This document shows, one piece after another, positions 10,645 to 21,057 of a stretch of 21,057 nucleotides of DNA. Each line of letters starts with the position of its first letter. Position 1 is the first letter of the stretch. Both the position numbers and the translations under genes were made by a program. Source of the DNA: Candidatus Micrarchaeota archaeon. GTDB taxonomy: Archaea; Micrarchaeota; Micrarchaeia; Anstonellales; Bilamarchaeaceae. The notes below the pieces were generated by a model. That model was not told where the DNA came from. It saw nothing but the letters and a program-made list of their open reading frames with translations, and did no database searches. The stretch spans positions 1 to 21,057 of the forward strand of contig JBFMCO010000067.1 in assembly GCA_040754495.1 (NCBI GenBank), written 5' to 3'.

Positions 10645-10673
10645 GAAGGTGAAACTCGCCAAAATAATAAAAA

Positions 10674-10736
10674 CTAGCCGCCCCGGATGTATTTTTCCAG
10701 CTCGGCCCTGGCCTCAGGGTCGCTCATCTGCCTGGG
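10674..10736 (-). pseudogene. ino1: Orphaned 3' fragment of an ino1 gene (PRQMSDPEARAELEKYIRGG*)
   Basis: Aligns without gaps to the C-terminus of the full ino1 in this window (PSQFSDAEAKELAEEFAISG; 8/20 identical, 14 of the first 17 nt identical). It is on the same strand, is 67% GC like the host genes, and is followed by an oligo-T tract. Confidence 0.8.
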
Positions 10737-10759
10737 CTGGGAAATGAACCCAGTCCACA

Positions 10760-10767
10760 TTTAAATA
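10760..10767 (+). promoter_or_regulatory. TATA box TTTAAATA for the endonuclease gene (leaderless spacing)
   Basis: Centred about 26 nt upstream of the ATG at 10789. Confidence 0.65.
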
Positions 10768-10788
10768 TCCAAATTTGTTTTCTTGTTT

Positions 10789-11769
10789 ATGGGGGATGAA
10801 TTGCTGACTTGCGAGCAGCTATTGGCTGATTATAAGGTGGGGAAGAAGCATCTTAACGAAGTCAGGCATTGGTTTCCCATACGCCCTACTCCAGAACTGG
10901 CCGGATTGGCGGCAGCACTGATAAGCGACGGCCATATAGATTGGAACAATTATGATGGAAACCCCAGGCCAAAGAAACTAATACTTTACTCAAACGACCC
11001 TCAGGAATGCGAGTGGTTCTTGGGTACTGTCTGGCGCCTTTTTTGTGTCAGAGGCGAAGTGGTGAAATACTGCTCCAACAGCGGATATTCGGCCAACTCC
11101 TCCTACAAAGCCGTAGTGTATTGTGCGGTATTGGCACGCATTCTCATCCTTCTTGGGGTTCCGGCTGGAGATAAAACCACAAGTCCATTTGCTGTTCCAA
11201 AATGGGTACTGGGCGGAAGCCGCGAAATCAAAAAGGAATTCCTGAGGGTTTTGTTTAACTTTGACGGTAGCCTGTCCATGCGGACAAGGCGCGAAACAGC
11301 AATAGAGATGAACTACTCGATGAATAAGCACGAGGCCATCGTTTCTAATGGCCAGCAATTCCTGCTCCAGGTAAAAGAGCTTCTTTCCGACTTCGGAGTC
11401 ACAGCCGGAAGGATTCATGTGCGCCCTTGCGCTGGTGACAAATATACCATTCTCCTTTTCGTGACGAATCACCTATCAATACTGAATTTCCACGAAAATA
11501 TCGGTTTTCTCGGCGAAACAAAAAGACGCAAACTCGAAACCGCTGTTTCCATAATCACAAAACACCGGAGAACATCTGGTGGTTCGGATGTTCTGCGGCT
11601 TCTAAAAGAGAAAGTGGGGAGCGACAGGGCAGCAATATCCAGAATAAATAAACTATCCCAGGTGAAATGCTCTCTCCGCCAATTCGAGCATATGCGCCGC
11701 GGTGAGTCCCTCATTCCTGTGGATATGGTGAACGCGGCCCTGAAGATACTAAATGAAAAAACGGGCTAA
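10789..11769 (+). CDS. Free-standing two-motif LAGLIDADG (intein/DOD-type) homing endonuclease with a C-terminal extension
   Basis: Motif 1 LAGLAAALISDGHI; GDKT...VPKWVLGGSREIKKEFLRVLFNFDGSL (motif 2); FHENIGFLGETKRRKLE block. No N-terminal Cys/Ser or C-terminal His-Asn splicing motifs and no extein. Confidence 0.88.
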   Translation: MGDELLTCEQLLADYKVGKKHLNEVRHWFPIRPTPELAGLAAALISDGHIDWNNYDGNPRPKKLILYSNDPQECEWFLGTVWRLFCVRGEVVKYCSNSGYSANSSYKAVVYCAVLARILILLGVPAGDKTTSPFAVPKWVLGGSREIKKEFLRVLFNFDGSLSMRTRRETAIEMNYSMNKHEAIVSNGQQFLLQVKELLSDFGVTAGRIHVRPCAGDKYTILLFVTNHLSILNFHENIGFLGETKRRKLETAVSIITKHRRTSGGSDVLRLLKEKVGSDRAAISRINKLSQVKCSLRQFEHMRRGESLIPVDMVNAALKILNEKTG

Positions 11770-12866
11770 CGCCCCGTATTGGCCCCGCTTATCGCAAATT
11801 CCTCTGCAAGTTCTTTCGCTTCCGCATCGCTGAACTGGCTGGGGGGGTGCTTCATGAGCCACGCGCTTGGCCCGATCAGCGCGCCGCCTATCTTTTTGTC
11901 AAGCGCAAGCTGCACGTATCTCAGAGCATCGGCTGAAACACCACTTGAATTCGCCTTGTCGTCCACTTCCAGCCGGACCTCCATGTTGTACGGGATGTTA
12001 GCCCACATACGCCCCTCAATCCTCATGAACATCAGCTTGGTATTAGCGAGGAAGGGAATGAAATCAGATGGCCCGATATATATCCTTTCATCAGGAAGCC
12101 TGTGGCGCAATTGTGACTGGACGCTCTCGGTTTTCGAGATCTTCTTGCTCTGCAGCCTCTCCCGTTCCAGCATATTGGTAAAGTCTGTGTTTCCGCCGAC
12201 ATTTATCTGATATGTCTTCTCGATTTTAGTGCCTCTCGAATCGCACAGTTTCGCAAGTGTCCGGTGCACGATGGTCGCCCCGACCATCCCTTTGTAATCG
12301 TCCCCCAGAACCGGAAGGTTCTTCTCCCTGAACTTCCGCTCCCACACTGGGTTGCTTGCGATGAATACCGGCATTGCGTTTACGAATCCGCAACCGGTTT
12401 CTAAGGCGACCTCTGCCCAGAATTCCGTGGCTTTCTGCGAACCGACAGGCAGATGATTCAGGATAATCCTGGCACCGCTATCCGTTATCTCCTGCACTGC
12501 TTCTTCCCTGAGTTTCTCAACGCTCTTTGTCTGCTTTATGGGTTTAATCATATTCTGGACATAGATGCCTACGCCGTCGAGTATCGGGCTTTCTTTTACT
12601 GTTCCAGAACAGCAGGAAACTGAATCCACCCAATTTACTTTATTTGGATATTCGTAAACAGCCTTTGCAAGCGGCTTCCCAACCTTGTTTTCCCCAACAT
12701 CGAAGCCGGCAACGAACTCCATGTCATGAATCGTATATCCCCCGATTTTCTCATACATAATCCCAATTACCTCTTCATTGGGATTCCTCTTGTAATACTC
12801 GATGCCCTGCACGAGCCCAGCAAAGCAGTTCCCGACCCCCACGACCGCGCATCTTATCTTCGCCAT
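11766..12866 (-). CDS. ino1: myo-inositol-1-phosphate synthase (short prokaryotic type)
   Basis: VVGVGNC Rossmann motif, NHLPVGSQKAT, GDDYKGMVGATIVHR, NVGGNTDF, SKKISKT, DDKANS and WLMKHPP motifs. AGGTG SD upstream. Confidence 0.96.
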   Translation of the reverse strand: MAKIRCAVVGVGNCFAGLVQGIEYYKRNPNEEVIGIMYEKIGGYTIHDMEFVAGFDVGENKVGKPLAKAVYEYPNKVNWVDSVSCCSGTVKESPILDGVGIYVQNMIKPIKQTKSVEKLREEAVQEITDSGARIILNHLPVGSQKATEFWAEVALETGCGFVNAMPVFIASNPVWERKFREKNLPVLGDDYKGMVGATIVHRTLAKLCDSRGTKIEKTYQINVGGNTDFTNMLERERLQSKKISKTESVQSQLRHRLPDERIYIGPSDFIPFLANTKLMFMRIEGRMWANIPYNMEVRLEVDDKANSSGVSADALRYVQLALDKKIGGALIGPSAWLMKHPPSQFSDAEAKELAEEFAISGANTGR

Positions 12867-12965
12867 AGCGACACCTATTTAATAATCATAAAATAGTATA
12901 ATATTTTAAACTAGTGGAAAGCAGGGGGTAATAACAATTTTAACTCTCTCTATTAATATGGAAAT
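12867..12965. promoter_or_regulatory. AT-rich divergent promoter region (ino1 / giant surface protein)
   Basis: TTTTAAA at 12904-12910 and TTTTAACT at 12938-12945, the latter about 25 nt before the ATG at 12966. Confidence 0.55.
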
Positions 12966-15900
12966 ATGAGACGAATTATTCTCCTGGCGCTGATTATCGC
13001 CGGCCTCGTCCATCCGGCATGCGAAATCCCGACCGACGACTTTCTTGTCAATGCGTCGACCACCTTCTGCTCCGGCACCTATAACATTTCCGACGCCGGC
13101 GCCCAAGGCATCATCATCGCCAACGCGAACAACATAGACATCACGTGCAACGGGACAATCCTGGTCGGCGGGGTAGCGGAACCGGCATCAACATTACGAC
13201 CAGGAACGGAACGAGCGTCTCAGGGTGCACGATAGCCAATTACAGCTCAGGAATAGCGCTTTACGGAGCATCGAGCAACGCCGTCACGAATAACAGCATA
13301 TCGGATTTCACATACGGCATATACGTAAGGCCGGGTTCGGCCAACTCCTCTTACAACTCATTCGAGAACAACAACATCGGGAACGGAACGACTGGAATCT
13401 ACCTCTACGATTTCGCCAACAACTATATCTCCTACAACAGCGCTTCCGGCAACGCCATAGGAAACTGCTCGAATAGCGGCGTATTCCTCGAAGTGCACGC
13501 AGCCGGCAGCAGCTTCATGGGCTACAACAGCTTCGTCAACAACAGCATCTCGGGCTGCAACAACTCCGTGCGCATATACGCAGGAGACAACGGCCTCGCA
13601 TACAACCAGTACAACGCCTTCGAGAACAACAGCTTCACGAACGGCACGAGCGGCGTCTACCTGGACGCCCAGGACTACCGCCACAGCCTGAATTTCAACA
13701 ACTTCACCACCAACGCATTCACCAATTTCAGCTCGTACGCGGTCTTCTTCGCGGACAACCTGACATACACCAACGACTTCGGTGGCGGGAACACCTTCGA
13801 CGGCTTCAACTTCTACCATTACGCATACAGGACGAACTTCTCCATAAGCGGCCTTTCACTCAACGCCAGCAACGACGCGAGCAACATAGGAATGTTCGTG
13901 ATCGCGAACAGCACCAACGTTTCGCTGGCAGACAGCAACATCACAGGCGACGGGGAATACGGCGTCTTCCTCTGGAACAACAGCCAGAGCTCCATTGCAG
14001 GCTCCAGCATATGGGGCAACGGCGGAGCCGCTGAAGAGGCCAACGTATACGCATTCGACGAGCGCAACTCGAGCATATCCGGCAACGTCATCGGCTCAGG
14101 GTACAACGGCGTCTACATCGTCTCATCATCAGGGATTGGAATCCACAACAGCACCATTGCGAACGCCACGAACTCGAACGTGGAGATCTACGGCTCCTCG
14201 ACAAACACAATGCGCAATAATAGCCTCGCAAATTCGACTTACGGCATACGAATCAGGCCCGGCGCAGCGAACTCCTACTACAATTCGCTCGACAACAACA
14301 CCATAAGCGGAACGGGCACGGGCATCTATTTCTACGATTTCGCAGCCAGCCAGATTGCATACAACAACGCCTCGGGCAATGCCATCGCGAACTGCACGAA
14401 CTACGGCGTTTCCCTGGAAGTCCGGGCGTCCAGCTCGAACTTCATGGGCTACAACCGCTTCGTGAACAACAGCGTCGCAAACTGCACGAACGCGGTCCGC
14501 CTCTTCGCCGGCGATAACGGCCTCGCGCAGAACCAGTACAACCTTTTCGAGAACAACAGCCTAGGTGGCTCCTACGGCATCTACCTGGACGTGCTTGACA
14601 GCCGCCATGTTGTCAATTCGACCAACTTCACCGGCAACCTCATCAACGCGACCATCTACCCCGTATTCTTCGCGGACGCCTATACCGGCATGAACAACTT
14701 CACCGACAACACTCTTATCAACGACAATTCCAGCAACTTCATATTCGTCACCCCCGGCGCGAACAACAGCTTCTCGAATACCACGTTCGTCCGCGGGGAT
14801 GGGCGGATAAACTTCCCACAGCCGGGCATCCTTGTCAACAGGTCGGTCAATTCCAGCAACATCGTGCTCGGCTCCGACATTGCTTCCATCAACTCATCGA
14901 ACCTTACGCAATATGCCGGCATCCCGGCCAACGTGACCACTTTCGCCGAGGTCTGCCCGCCGGCCATCTTCACCAAATCCGGCTTCCCGCTGACTTCCGC
15001 GGACATAACCGCGAACGGCTCGGCCTGCTCGTCGCCCCAGTGCATCGTCGTGTCCTGCGCTTCAAACTTAACCCAGTTCTCGGTTGCGAACTTCTCGGGC
15101 TACTCGGCCAACGCGACGGCGGAAAACTGTCCCATCATCACTGCTGCGGGAGCATACACTATGTCCGGGAGCTATACCGGCGCGCCCAACAGCGCGTCCC
15201 CGCTGGGAGGCTCGGCCTGCGTGAAGATTGCGGCATCCGACGTGGTCCTCGACTGTGCCGGCTTCAATATAACGAACAACGGAACCGCAGGGACGACCTA
15301 CGGCATCATGCTGAACAACTCGGCGTCCAACGTCACGGTGATGAACTGCCCCGGTATACACAGCTACTCCTATGGCACCTACCTCTACCGCGCCAACTAC
15401 AGCGATTTCACCAACCTTTCGGTCATCAATGCCAGCACCGCCGCGTTCTTCATATCGGAGGGCCACGACAACTCGTTCACAGGCAGCTATGGAAACGCGA
15501 GCGGCTATGGCTTCTACCTTTCCTCCACCGCCAACAATTCCCTGACCAACAACACCGCAAGGTCCGATAACCAGTACGGCTTCCTGGTCACTTCCAGCAG
15601 CAACAACGCAATCGCCAACAGCTCGATACTGAACAGCCAGTACGGCATCGGCGTCACGGCTGGCGCGAACAACTCCTTCTACAACAACACAATGACGATA
15701 AACCCCGGAGGCTACGGCTTCTCTGTCTCGGGAAGCGACAACCTGATAACCGGCAACACCGTAAACAACTCGGCATACGCCTATTACTTCGTGGGCAGCC
15801 AGAACAATCTGATCACCAACAACAGCGCCTTCAACGCCAGCAACTACGGCATGTCCTTTACCTCCGCATCGTTCAACCAGACGGTGATCAACAATACCCT

Positions 15901-18900
15901 GCGTGAAAGCGGCATCTACGACTTCTTCATCGTCGTCTCCAACGCCGGCTGCGCCCATACGGTCCAGAACAACACCGGATCAGGCTACAGGCCCATAATG
16001 TACGCAAACACCTCGGTCTCCTGGAGCGACCTCGAGGCCTCTGAAGTCTTCCTGTGCGATGCTGACAACTCGGTCCTCCAGAACGTGTCGGCGAACGGCT
16101 CCGACACCCTTAGAAACAACGCTTTCTTCATGTTCCGGACCGACAACAGCCTCGTGAACGGCTCGGACTCGAGTGACAACTACTACAGCTTCTACCTGGA
16201 TTCGAGCAGCAACAACAGCCTCGCAAACAGCCGCGCCTCGAATTCCTCCCAGGGCTACGGGTATTACATCCTGAACAGCGCCAACAACACCCTGCGCGAC
16301 AACAGCGCCAACTACAGCGCCTACGGCTTCTACCTCTATTCGAACTCGAACGACAACCTACTCAGCAACAATACCGCCAACGCCACGGCTGCCGCCTTCT
16401 ACCTCTCCCAGGTCTCCGGAAACAACCTCACGAACAACACCGCCATCTCAGCGGGCGGCTACGGTTTCTACCTCTACACCGCTGCCAACGGTACGATAAC
16501 CAATAACCCCATATACTCCTACTACGGTGCATACCTGTCCTACTATTCGAACAACAACACGATAACAAACAATGCGATGTCACCACCGAACGAAGCATTC
16601 CACCTGTCGCTGAGCAGCGGGAACCGCATCGGAACGGGCGCAATCACTGGCTACGGGGCAGGGCGCGGCGTCTTCCTTGAGTCCGGCAGCGACAACAACA
16701 CGTTCGCCAACCTCAGCCTCGGCGGCTTCCCCTACGGCGTGTACCTTTTCGGGAGCAACACCGGCAACAACTTCACGGGCGACGCCCTGTGCAACAACAC
16801 GTACGGGACATACATCTTCAGGTCGAACCTGACGCGGCTGGCCGGGGAGCACTACTGCAACAACAGCTACGATTTCACGGCGAGCGCGGTAGGGGGCGGG
16901 GACATACTGGTAAGCGTGTCCTCGGCCATCTTCGACGGGCCGGCAGCGGACCTCACGAACTACACCAACCTGTCGCTGAGCGACATCGTATCATCGGGCT
17001 CGTCCTACATGATAAACTGGAGCAACCAGAGCGCCGCCCTGCCCGCGGAACGTATGAGCTTCGCGGGCAGGTTCGTCAATATCTCGAACCTGAGCGCCGG
17101 CGTCTCAATAGACAGCCTCAGCTGGACATGGCTCGACCCCGAGCTTTCAGGCTACGACGAAACGGCATTCGAGCTGTGGAAATACAACTCGAGTGGCTGG
17201 GCCGTCCTCAACAACACACCCAACACCTCGGCTAATATCCTCTCGCTCTCGAACCACAGCCCGGCAAGCTTGTACGGCATCCTTGAGGAGAACGCCTCCT
17301 GCGTCACACCGACCAACGACTACTACGTGAACGTGGACACGGTCTTCTGCCCCGGGACCTACAACCTTTCTGACACGGGCGCAACAGGTGTGATAATAGC
17401 AAATGCGAGCGGCATAACCATTACCTGTGATGGAACAGAACTTGTCGGGAACAACGCGGGCAGCGCCTTCTATGCATCAGCCAAGAGCGGCATAACTATA
17501 CAAGGATGCAAAATCCGGAATTATACAAACGGCATATACGTCAACCGCCCCAACCTCACCACGATAACAAACAACACCATCCGGAACACGACCTCCAACG
17601 GTATCTACTTCTACCAGTCCGGGGGCTCCAACTACGGCCACTCCACGATAGAGAACAACACGATAAGCGGCCCTGCAGCAGGCAGCTCCATCTACCTCTA
17701 CACCGCCGACGGCGGAACAGCGTTCAACACTACCGTCAGGGGCAATAGTTTCGGCAACTCCACATACGGCTTGCAGATGAGAACCGCTTCGCTGGGCGCC
17801 ACGGCCACTCAGTACAACTTCACACTCTCAGGCAACGACTGCTCCAACACAACGCGCTGTTTCTATCTCTATGATGCAGGGGGAGGCGCAATCAAGTATG
17901 GTAAATTCGAGAACAACACCCTCTCCGGCTCAACCTATGGGATCTACATCCAGGGCGGCGCATCAAAAGTGGTGGAGAACAACTTCAGCGGCAACGCGCT
18001 TTCCAACATAAACTCCTATGGCGTTTATTTCGTGGACTCGAATACCTATCAGAACCGCTTCTGGGACGCCAACACGTTCGACGGCTATCCCTTCTACCAC
18101 TACTATGATTTCAATGACACTTCGATGGGCAACCTTAGCATCAACGCCAGCGCCGATGCCACGAACCTGGGGCTTTTCACCGTTGTAGACAGCAGGAATT
18201 TCACCCTCTATGGCAGCAACATAAGCGGGGACAGGGAATACGGGATTTTCTTCTGGAGAGGGCTGAACTACACCGTGGAGGATGCAATCCTCTCCGGCAA
18301 CGGCAATGCGGGCAGCGAAGCGAACATATACATGTATAATGGCAACCGCAGCTCAATCAGCAACAACATCATCCGCGGCGGAAGGATAGGCATATTCGAC
18401 GATATGCCCCTCTTCGGTGTCCGAGCGCAAAACAACATCATAGCGAACACGACCAGCAGCGGCATATACGTAGACCGCCCATACGCCGAAATGATTACAA
18501 ACAACACCATAAGGAACGCCTCCTCCGGCGGGATTCATTTCTTCTATGACTGGGGCGGCAATTACGGCTACTCGGTTCTGGAGAACAACACCATAGACGG
18601 CCCTTCTGGAGGCAGCTCCATCTACTTCCAATCCACAACCAACGGGAACATGAGCAGCATAAACGTCACCAACAATAGCTTCGGAAACTCCACCTATGGC
18701 TTGCGGATGAGTTCCGGGTCGTGGATCAGCCCGGCCGCGCAGGACAACTACCGTGTCACAGGCAACAACTGCTCCAACACCACGCGCTGCTTCGCCCTCT
18801 ATGCGACGGGGGGGGCCTACGGCACCATACGGTATGGACGTTTCGAGAACAACACAATCTCAAACTCTACCTACGGCATCTACCTCGATGGAAGCTCCGG

Positions 18901-21057
18901 GCGGCTTGTTGAGAACAACTTCACCGGCAACGCGCTTTCCAGCATAACTTCCTATGGCGTGTATTTTGTCGATTCCAACCCCTACTACAACCGCTTCTGG
19001 GATGCCAACACGTTCGACGGCTATCCCTTCTACCACTACTACGATACCAATGACACCGCAGTAGGCGGTCTGGACATCAACGCCAGCGCCGACGCCACCA
19101 ACCTGGGGCTTTTCACAGTCGTACGCAGCGGTAATTTCACTTTCTACGGCAGCAACGTCAGCGGGGACCGGGAATACGGCGCCTTCCTCTGGATAACGGT
19201 GAACTCAACTGTCGAGAACGCCACGTTTTCCAGCAACGGCAACGCGGGCGATGAGGCAAACGTATACCTCTACAACGACAACCGCAGCTCAATCAGCAAC
19301 AACATCATCCGCGGCGGAAGGATAGGCATATTCGACGATATGCCCCTCCTCGGTGTCCAGGCGCAAAACAACATCATAGCGAACACGACCAGCAGCGGCA
19401 TATACGTAGACCGCCCCAAGTTCAACAGCATTGCCAACAACACCATCCGGAACACGACCTCCAACGGCATCTATTTCTACCAGTCGGGAGGCTCCAACTA
19501 CGGCTACTCCACAATAGAGAACAACACGATAAGCGGCCCTGCAGCAGGCAGCTCCATCTACCTCTACACCGCCGACGGCGGAACATCATACGATGTCAAT
19601 GTTACGAACAACAGCTTCGGCAACTCTGCATACGGATTGCGGATGGGAACCGGCTCCTGGGTCGGCAGCGGGACCGGTCTGTACAACTACACTATCGTAG
19701 GCAACGACTGCTCCAACACAACACGATGCTTCTATCTTTCTGCGACCGGAGGCTCATCGGGCGTAATCAAGTATGACCGGTTCGAGGACAACCTGTTATC
19801 CAACTCAACCTACGGCATTTGCCTCGAGGGCAGCCCCTCAAGGCTGGTGGAGAACAACTTCAGCGGCAATGTTGTAAATGCCAGTTCATATCCGCTATAC
19901 TTTAGTGATGCGAATCCGGCCAATAACAGCTTCTTCGATATCACCCTCATCAACGATGTCTCCGGCAATTTCATCTACAACCCCGGCGCATCGACCAACT
20001 ATTCAAATATAACGTTCGCCCGCAACCAGGGCAGGATAAACTTCCCACCGGGCAACATATCGCTGGCAAAGAGCGTCAATAGCGGCAACACTGTCCTGAA
20101 CTCGGACATCGCCTCGATAAACTCGACCTACCTTACGGAGTTCGCAATCCCTGCCAATGTCACCACCTACGCGCCCCAGTGCCCTGCCCTCGTTATGTGG
20201 AAGGCCGGATTTCCGACGACCTCGGCAAATATAGTCTCGGCAGGCAGCCTGTGCAGCGAGCCCCAGTGCGCCCTCATTTCCTGCAGCTCCAATCTCGTGC
20301 AGTTCTCGGTGGCGAACTTCTCAGGTTACACAGCGAACATCACAGCCGCCGCCAATGTCTCTGCAATCAAGCTGGACCAGACGGCGGCCCAGCCATCGCC
20401 CGGAGGCCTCGTTCAGTTCAATATGACCGTGAACAACACTGGCGATTTCAGCCTTAACGTCACCGTCAGCGACATGCTGCCATCTGGACTTTCTTTCTCC
20501 TCCGCGTTCCCCGCGAACTCCTCTCCGGGACCGGTCTGGATTTACAACGGCCTTGCCCCCGGAAACAGCACCGTATTCTACATAAATGCCACTGTAGCTC
20601 CCTGGACGGTGAACGCTTCAGTGCCGGTCAGCAACCTCACAAACTACGTAAACGTGACCGGCCAGCCTGCCAGCGGGAGCAACGTCACTGGGGAGAGCTA
20701 CGCCAACGTGACAGTCTACTACGCCAACGTTTCCGTCCTGAAACTCGACCAAACCGCCCTCCAGCCATCGCCTGGCGGCATCGTCCAGTTCAACCTCACG
20801 ATAACGAACACGGGCAACGTGTCGCTGAGTCCGGTAGAGCTGACCGACGAGCTTCCATCCGGTCTCACCTTCGTTTCTTCTTCGCCTGCGCCTGATTCGG
20901 TGCTCGGTCAGTCCATAGACTGGGACGATATCGGCCCCCTCGCTCCAGGCGCTTCTTCAGTCGTATACCTCAATGCCACAGTGGATGCCGGCGCGGTGAA
21001 TGCCTCGGTGCCGGCAAGAAACCTCACAAACTACGTCGAGGCCGTCGGCGTCCCGCC
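12966..21057 (+). CDS. Giant secreted surface protein/adhesin (about 2,700 aa or more, 3' end beyond window): signal peptide, NosD/CASH-like right-handed beta-helix modules, Cys-rich linker domains and DUF11-like Ig repeats; frameshift at 13170-13173
   Basis: Signal peptide MRRIILLALIIAGLVHPA. After a -1 shift I translated the frame from 13172 to the window end by hand and found no stop. It has Asn/Ser/Thr/Tyr-rich GIYL..S.NN.I.NN repeats and DUF11-like units (IKLDQ...QFNMTVNNTG...SDMLPSGLSF) from about 20350. Confidence 0.9.
13310..14640 (+). repeat. Internal duplication in the first beta-helix module, period 927 nt (309 aa)
   Basis: TYGIYVRPGSANSSYN...FMGYNSFVNN...AGDNGLAYNQYN at 13310 recurs as TYGIRIRPGAANSYYN...FMGYNRFVNN...AGDNGLAQNQYN at 14237. 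Confidence 0.85.
17531..19900 (+). repeat. About 2.5 tandem copies of a 930-936 nt (310-312 aa) unit in the third beta-helix module
   Basis: GIYV(N/D)RP anchors at 17531, 18461 and 19397; 18343-18480 versus 19279-19416 differ at 3 of 138 nt. Confidence 0.9.

Follow-up and report, generated by a model that had tools for sequence, protein, structure and literature searches.

A probable gene-end-replacing homing element at the 3' end of ino1 in a Micrarchaeota chromosome

Introduction

In the yeasts Torulaspora and Lachancea, WHO elements home into FBA1 (Coughlan et al. 2020, PMC7282813; Osborne et al. 2026, bioRxiv 10.64898/2026.08.13.744650). Their endonuclease, encoded just downstream of this essential gene, cuts naive alleles, and repair copies the endonuclease gene together with the donor's gene end, leaving the recipient's old end downstream, where it later serves as a homology arm (PMC7282813). 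Archaea go unmentioned in the WHO papers (PMC7282813; bioRxiv 10.64898/2026.08.13.744650). Here we describe a locus on a contig of a Candidatus Micrarchaeota archaeon (GenBank JBFMCO010000067.1, assembly GCA_040754495.1; all 21,057 nucleotides of it, referred to below as the window), in which ino1, the gene for myo-inositol-1-phosphate synthase, is followed by an antisense gene for a LAGLIDADG endonuclease and by a short remnant of a second ino1 3' end, which we call the stub. We consider it probable that the locus holds a homing element which replaces the end of the gene that it enters and leaves the old end behind, working much as WHO elements do, in an archaeal chromosome.

In intronless homing, a free-standing endonuclease cuts the neighboring gene in naive genomes, and flanking markers are co-converted. 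For phage T4, SegF/SegG and mobE are cases of intronless homing by free-standing endonucleases (cited in PMC2790892). In fungal mitochondria, gene hybrids formed with mobile open reading frames (mORFs) are described for atp6 of Allomyces macrogynus, for atp6, atp9, cox2, and nad3 of Glomus, for atp9 of Rhizopus, and for cox2 of Mortierella; in these the native C-terminus matches that of sister species and the inserted copy is divergent (PMC3630166). The fungal mitochondrial cases had been named, along with free-standing phage endonucleases, as precedents in a preliminary description of the window, drawn up from its sequence alone; they remain apt, and the closest precedent also includes the nuclear WHO elements of yeasts. 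Free-standing endonucleases are mentioned in glycosylation islands of Haloferax (PMC5867893), but in the literature we found described neither a homing element at archaeal ino1 nor a free-standing archaeal LAGLIDADG gene with a displaced gene end.

Results

The window is contig C67 of a metagenome-assembled genome (MAG) of 1.63 Mb in 72 contigs, 80% complete; Micrarchaeota are DPANN archaea, and the genus in which comparisons were made comprises 40 genomes. The parts of the locus are as follows.

11766-12866, minus strand: resident ino1, 366 aa, PF01658 at 111 bits
10789-11769, plus strand: LAGLIDADG_3 endonuclease gene, 326 aa, PF14528 (open reading frame, ORF, from 10783/10789)
10740-10788, plus strand: promoter module of the endonuclease gene, with a box GGAAATGAACC at 10740-10750, a TATA element ATTTAAATAT at 10759-10768, and ~20 nt from there to the ATG
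10674-10739, minus strand: the stub, a native ino1 3' remnant of class C type (66 nt) with its own TAG
10674-10736, minus strand: reading frame of the stub, PRQMSDPEARAELEKYIRGG and stop (63 nt); DNA homology to native tails runs up to 10739
10661-10673, minus strand: TATA box of lig, host flank
8917-10644/10662, minus strand: lig, ATP-dependent DNA ligase (PF01068, PF04675, PF04679), likely start ATG 10644 (MLLFSD...)

Read along the minus strand, the order is ino1, the antisense endonuclease gene, a 49-nt AT-rich spacer, the stub, the lig TATA box, lig, and pepA. The endonuclease gene and ino1 converge, their stop codons sharing 4 nt, and the spacer is the endonuclease promoter module, not DNA derived from ino1. 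GC content is 65% in the stub, 48% in the endonuclease gene, 51% in ino1, 60% in lig, and 31% in the promoter module. The preliminary description had placed ino1, the antisense gene, the fragment, and lig correctly, and its gap-free match of the fragment to the resident Ino1 tail at 8 of 20 residues is accurate; it had also called the fragment host-like at 67% GC, of which the likeness to the host stands and the figure does not.

The stub matches Ino1 C-termini well above chance. Against class C Ino1 (G054, G051, G017), tblastn aligns it to residues 342-360 at 79–84% amino acid identity. The E value is 3e-6 when the window is searched and 2e-4 for the genome, and the next unrelated match has E=0.25; for these queries it is the sole match in the window apart from the resident gene. 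By blastn it shares 87% nucleotide identity over 54 nt with the ino1 3' end of G054. Its TAG lies directly against the lig TATA box (GGC TAG TTTTTATT), a juxtaposition also seen at the empty locus of G021. Ino1 of the genus falls into classes that differ in their ends: class A ends in ...AKELAE.F..., class B in ...KQFSDDEAQ..A.EFA..., and class C in ...KQMTDPEARAELERYIKG and stop, and class D joins a B/C-like body to an A-like tail. The Lig tree joins the window to G010 (class C) and G048 (class D) at a support of 98; the PepA tree leaves this grouping unresolved. By these alignments the stub is confirmed as the native Ino1 C-terminus, of class C and host-like in composition, and an intact native allele of this lineage would have ended in ...KHPPRQMSDPEARAELEKYIRGG and stop directly before the lig TATA box.

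At least 10 further MAGs or metagenome contigs, assembled independently, show the same architecture (ino1, endonuclease gene, box, native-type tail), with differing native tails. In the genus the endonuclease gene is full-length in five genomes and truncated in one (G012), always at the ino1 3' end. Stubs outside the window are as follows.

G006: ALSDDEAQRLATEFLR and stop
G023: ADDEAQRLALEVVRGK and stop, resembling the tail that is intact in G049, its sister on the Lig and PepA trees
G005 and G018: present
M101: KFSDDEAQRLADEFVAGSK and stop
J115: FSDDEAQRLAMEFAKG and stop
N117: ...AVEEFIKGERER and stop
G024: present, beside a 40-aa endonuclease relic
M102: truncated
G044: degenerate

No recognizable stub was found at JAZDDV (L093) or N119 (L119). 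Because the window comes from a MAG in 72 contigs and of 80% completeness, one could suspect an assembly chimera of two strains, one carrying a class A and the other a class C ino1. With the same order of parts assembled independently at least ten times in MAGs and contigs from different projects, and with the stub joined to the box exactly as at those loci, such a chimera is scarcely credible.

Empty, filled, and decayed loci were all found among the relatives, and the ino1-lig-pepA synteny is kept across the genus. J115 has a class A ino1 and, at 66%, the endonuclease closest to that of the window; it is sister on the PepA tree (support 100) to G021, where an intact class B ino1 stands directly before lig. 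The stub of J115, its stop codon, the lig TATA box, and lig are colinear with the intact tail and lig promoter of G021, and by this colinearity the two are a filled/empty pair. Decay can be followed within one clade, from G005, with endonuclease gene and stub, to G018, where the box and stub remain and the endonuclease gene is lost, to G019, where both are lost except for the last ~17 nt. The second-closest endonuclease, that of G044, sits on a class D ino1 body, so endonuclease and ino1 body are separable. In lineages other than that of the window, conversion may at times be confined to the tail, as class D alleles suggest.

In the window, by contrast with such tail conversion, the whole resident gene is foreign. 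It is the only ino1 in the MAG, and its product is 84–87% identical to class A relatives versus 64–70% identical to the other alleles of the genus. In every 40-aa window the identity to class A is 76–98%, versus 34–90% to other classes, falling to 34–46% at residues 80-160. GC content at third codon positions (GC3) is 0.62 in ino1 and 0.52 in the endonuclease gene, against 0.85 in both lig and pepA; in J115 the values are 0.48 and 0.45 against 0.71 and 0.74. The deficit recurs in G005, G018, G019, G044, M101, and M102, and in cassette-free genomes of other allele classes GC3 does not differ between ino1, lig, and pepA. The resident gene encodes a full-length protein with PF01658 and a conserved NAD-binding N-terminus, GVGNCFAGLVQG, and within host clades class A has a ratio of nonsynonymous to synonymous substitution rates (dN/dS) of 0.02–0.05, indicating strong purifying selection. 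Among vertically held alleles the nearest, at 68–70% identity, belong to genus g17. Judged by identity and codon composition, the resident ino1 is a foreign class A allele along essentially its whole length. The preliminary description held that the cassette had split ino1 and supplied a new 3' end; the displaced native 3' end is borne out, but a replacement of the tail alone is not.

The first ~23 ino1 codons (window 12801-12866) have G or C at 19 of 23 third positions, versus a GC3 of 0.60 in the rest (post hoc binomial p=0.02), and class A and native alleles are mixed among the best nucleotide matches of the first 81 nt, in a stretch where the protein is invariant in all classes. These codons may be a host-like exception and the far end of a conversion tract, as the p value and mixed matches faintly hint.

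Class A forms a single long-stemmed clade on the Ino1 tree (support 95, rising to 100 with more taxa), and its hosts occupy four separate places on the Lig and PepA trees. The approximately unbiased (AU) test rejects a single clade of class A hosts (p=9e-7 for Lig, p=9e-10 for PepA), and in these tests lies the disagreement between element and host trees that is looked for in homing elements. The cassette extends beyond the genus, to genus g32; class A is present with the endonuclease in one genome of another genus (G148), and a third genus (G150) has class A without it.

The antisense gene is predicted, on motif, fold, and profile, to encode a free-standing, monomeric, two-motif LAGLIDADG homing endonuclease. 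It passes the PF14528 (LAGLIDADG_3) cut-off marginally (25.2 bits vs 22.5), and its profile match among Protein Data Bank sequences is weak (E=0.025). Its two LAGLIDADG helices end in LAGLAAALISDG (D49) and FLRVLFNFDG (D161), and both Asp-Gly pairs are invariant in five full-length homologs of 45–59% identity, which also keep a C-terminal RQFEHMRRGE motif. The AlphaFold2 model (mean predicted local distance difference test score 88.5, predicted template-modeling score 0.82) shows two alpha-beta-beta-alpha-beta-beta-alpha halves followed by a helical, helix-turn-helix-like C-terminal domain. Foldseek matches it to LAGLIDADG enzymes of inteins and archaeal introns and to WhiA; the top matches are the intein endonucleases TliVMA and PI-PfuI, I-Tsp061I, I-DmoI, and WhiA, with I-OnuI also found; for the five endonucleases E ranges from 2e-10 to 1e-6. 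With modeled fold and catalytic Asp residues kept, the enzyme looks active; no dN/dS could be obtained for it because its dS is saturated.

The presence of WhiA among the best fold matches, and the conserved helical domain with its RQFEHMRRGE motif, could also be read as signs of a domesticated WhiA-like DNA-binding regulator of ino1 or lig rather than a mobile nuclease. A regulator would hardly be expected to keep both catalytic Asp residues invariant, to be so patchily distributed (five full-length and one truncated copy in 40 genomes), to leave relics and deletions inside single clades, or to have foreign composition in a family of just 25 clusters among 5.8 billion proteins, and we regard this reading as very improbable. 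The named sources of those clusters are all Micrarchaeota- or Diapherotrites-like.

The preliminary description had taken the cassette for a non-splicing element at the ino1 3' end, and this view was upheld: the gene is on the strand opposite ino1 and not within it, and Rfam gave no match over the locus (L110) at E<=1, as an intein or a group I intron would not predict. The endonuclease gene converges on the ino1 3' end at every locus that extends far enough, including L118/L119 and M103, where the other neighbor is not lig, and loci where a CDP-alcohol phosphatidyltransferase gene takes that place.

Upstream of the endonuclease gene, the box GCGGAAATGAAC (endonuclease strand) stands ~10 nt before the TATA element and ~45 nt before the ATG. 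Box, spacing, and TATA are kept upstream of the endonuclease in G005, G023, G044, G006, G012, M101, M102, and J115. The conserved GGTTCATTTCC(GCGG) adjoining each stub, of which GCGGAAATGAAC is the reading on the endonuclease strand, is not ino1 sequence. All four tnpB genes of the MAG (PF01385, PF07282) are preceded by the same box, spacing, and TATA. Copies in the MAG (G000) are on the following contigs.

C46 (L111:4022-4070)
C53
C66
C5
C32
C51

Homology between the cassette and the left ends of the tnpB elements stops at the box, so the box marks where the foreign DNA ends on its outer, right-hand side, at 10740. The tnpB gene of C46, and a cut ORF in C32, begin with the start ATGGGGGA(T/C) of the endonuclease, and solo box copies followed by hairpins were seen in C51 and at C5:21024. 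We had also entertained an ino1 relic or a tRNA T-arm as the origin of the junction box; both were rejected, as it is a promoter box that also precedes tnpB genes. At the box itself neither ARAGORN nor Rfam detected an RNA gene, the sole significant match being a 23S rRNA 3' end ~125 nt from the copy in C41.

The promoter shared with all four tnpB genes raises the possibility that an IS200/IS605-type transposon carries the endonuclease gene as cargo and that transposition moved it. However, the box is all that the cassette has in common with tnpB elements: the subterminal hairpins and the ~90 nt of left-end sequence common to the C46 and C32 copies are absent, the cassette has neither tnpA nor tnpB, and transposition would explain neither the exclusive location at the ino1 3' end nor the stubs. 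We therefore give very little credence to transposon cargo.

Discussion

Anatomy, a foreign ino1 with its endonuclease gene, a native stub, recurrence with different stubs, and empty, filled, and decayed states are all observed at these loci. On the homing account that we favor, the mobile unit would be the free-standing LAGLIDADG gene with its own promoter, tail-to-tail with the ino1 allele that travels with it. The endonuclease would cut native ino1 near the codons of an invariant MKHPP motif, and the break would be repaired from a donor bearing the cassette. On the left, recombination would take place in or upstream of ino1, giving here a conversion tract of about the whole gene; on the right, the DNA would rejoin within the recipient's tail, so that the last ~20 native codons persist as the stub between the endonuclease promoter and lig. 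The stub could then act as a right-hand homology arm for further homing, as in WHO elements, and the endonuclease gene would later decay and be deleted, leaving the foreign ino1.

The position of the box/stub join differs among lineages, falling at Pro1 in the window, Gln in J115, Lys in M101 and G005, Ser in G006, and Asp in G023. M101 and G005, whose endonucleases are sisters, have one junction in common and different tails, as would be expected if later homing involved a crossover within the stub.

Lineage-specific joins are also what illegitimate joining would produce, and they could be taken to favor an ordinary horizontal replacement, in which a foreign ino1 and its neighboring endonuclease gene entered by recombination, illegitimate or homologous, that had nothing to do with cleavage, the endonuclease being a passenger or aimed elsewhere. 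The presumed site carries no clear immunity signature, and the interval between ino1 and lig is variable, being occupied by unrelated genes in many genomes. Such a replacement, however, would not tie the endonuclease to the ino1 3' end in every context, those without lig included; nor would it place all stub starts within a window of ~20 nt, just after the MKHPP codons, or make independent replacements across host clades and genera recur always with the same endonuclease family. The unrelated insertions between ino1 and lig, moreover, never come with a stub. We thus regard ordinary replacement as unlikely.

Among those insertions, giant surface-protein genes, a membrane-protein gene, and a GNAT gene have neither stub nor box, except in G004. 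There a 180-aa ORF, GNAT-like by eye, lies antisense between a class A ino1 and lig (C9, L053:4390-4932). It follows what is left of the promoter box (ATCCATTTCCGCGG) and the opening bases of a stub, from which it appears that a decayed site has been re-used.

Several observations weigh against the homing account. Cleavage and where exactly it falls, a resident allele that withstands it, and the way in which the break is repaired are inferred. Only ~3 nt distinguish the resident class A allele from naive alleles over the 22 bp around the junction, and the G044 allele looks naive there; these few differences are synonymous or neighboring, the tails diverging strongly further 3', so self-immunity is not evident from the sequence. 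The shift of the join, which spans a few codons as well as a few bases of the box, is not predicted by a simple crossover-in-stub model, and independent microhomology joins or later erosion would be needed. The left edge of the foreign tract could not be mapped, sliding identity between G023 and G049 being too noisy, and the upstream neighbors of ino1 are non-syntenic, in three configurations, with only a ~45-nt promoter common to all classes. No empty allele from the same species was found. Finally, dS of class A between host clades is saturated and the endonucleases are only 45–66% identical, which speaks against a recent sweep and implies that several old, diverse cassette lineages circulate.

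The locus shares several features with WHO elements: a gene of LAGLIDADG type lies immediately downstream of an essential metabolic gene, introns, inteins, and splicing play no part, the displaced 3' fragment is kept downstream, host-gene phylogenies are discordant, and endonuclease genes and fragments decay. The differences are that the element sits in a DPANN archaeon and targets ino1; that the gene is antisense, with overlapping stops; that whole ino1 is converted here, against the 3' half in WHO; and that no multi-element clusters were seen, the most being one relic (G024). Because the protein has no relic of a Hint/intein domain and no zinc finger (LAGLIDADG_3 is the only Pfam domain) and carries a helical C-terminal domain instead, the element would be WHO-like in its working rather than a member by descent. 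In mORF hybrids, too, an endonuclease ORF brings a foreign host-gene C-terminus and the native one persists downstream (PMC3630166), but the setting is an organelle and the C-terminus alone is replaced. Phage intronless homing shares the free-standing endonuclease that cuts an adjacent gene and spreads with co-conversion; there, GIY-YIG or HNH enzymes act between co-infecting phages and a duplicated gene end is not normally left.

A broader reading is that Archaea own a third category of WHO-like element, in which a free-standing LAGLIDADG nuclease with a resistant allele of ino1, an essential gene for lipids and osmolytes, drives replacement of part or all of the gene across species and genera of Micrarchaeota and leaves dated stubs of victim alleles, and in which a promoter module common with TnpB (OMEGA) nucleases hints at shared control of unrelated selfish nucleases; for this we judge the case evenly balanced. 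If it is true, gene-end-replacing homing extends to Archaea, beyond nuclear FBA1 of yeasts and fungal mitochondria, and is no fungal oddity. It would be a concrete route by which a core metabolic gene is swapped between DPANN species and genera, making ino1 an unsafe phylogenetic marker in this group, and the stubs would record the allele that each lineage held before invasion. The filled, empty, and decayed loci would form a natural series for the endonuclease life cycle, and a small family of compact enzymes with an inferable target region would be a candidate source of a new meganuclease.

Related DPANN genomes also carry inserts within ino1 itself. In several genomes of the order, namely G045:C78 (L086:5400-6812), G034:C94, G071, G155, G123, and G152, ino1 is one frame of 809–857 aa with a ~470-aa insert at residue ~226 that is probably a LAGLIDADG-containing intein, so that ino1 would be struck by two kinds of homing element in this clade. 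These Ino1 inteins share host gene, clade, and LAGLIDADG type with the free-standing cassette but lie in frame and would depend on protein splicing. Close kinship of the two enzymes is not supported, the endonuclease of the window being 22% identical (E=0.005) to the Ino1-intein endonuclease.

At L117 (GCA_026396975.1, JAPLVT010000055.1), the ino1 beside a distant endonuclease homolog, between the endonuclease and PadR genes, lacks residues ~276-320 and has no called gene, and is possibly a pseudogene; an Ino1-tail stub (...EEFIKGERER and stop) still follows the endonuclease promoter. A PadR-type gene adjoins ino1 in L117-L119. Nearly every ino1 allele of the genus, whatever its class, has a conserved palindrome ACTATTTAAC-N3-5-GTTAAATAGT (in the window ACTATTTTATGATTATTAAATAG, at 12875-12897 on the minus strand) 10–60 nt upstream of its start; the palindrome is probably an operator for a regulator of ino1. 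Giant genes for Asn/Ser/Thr-rich surface proteins (1,080–2,600+ aa) occupy 13145-21055 of the window (plus strand) and adjoin ino1 upstream or downstream in many members of the genus, in several of which they interrupt the adjacency of ino1 and lig.

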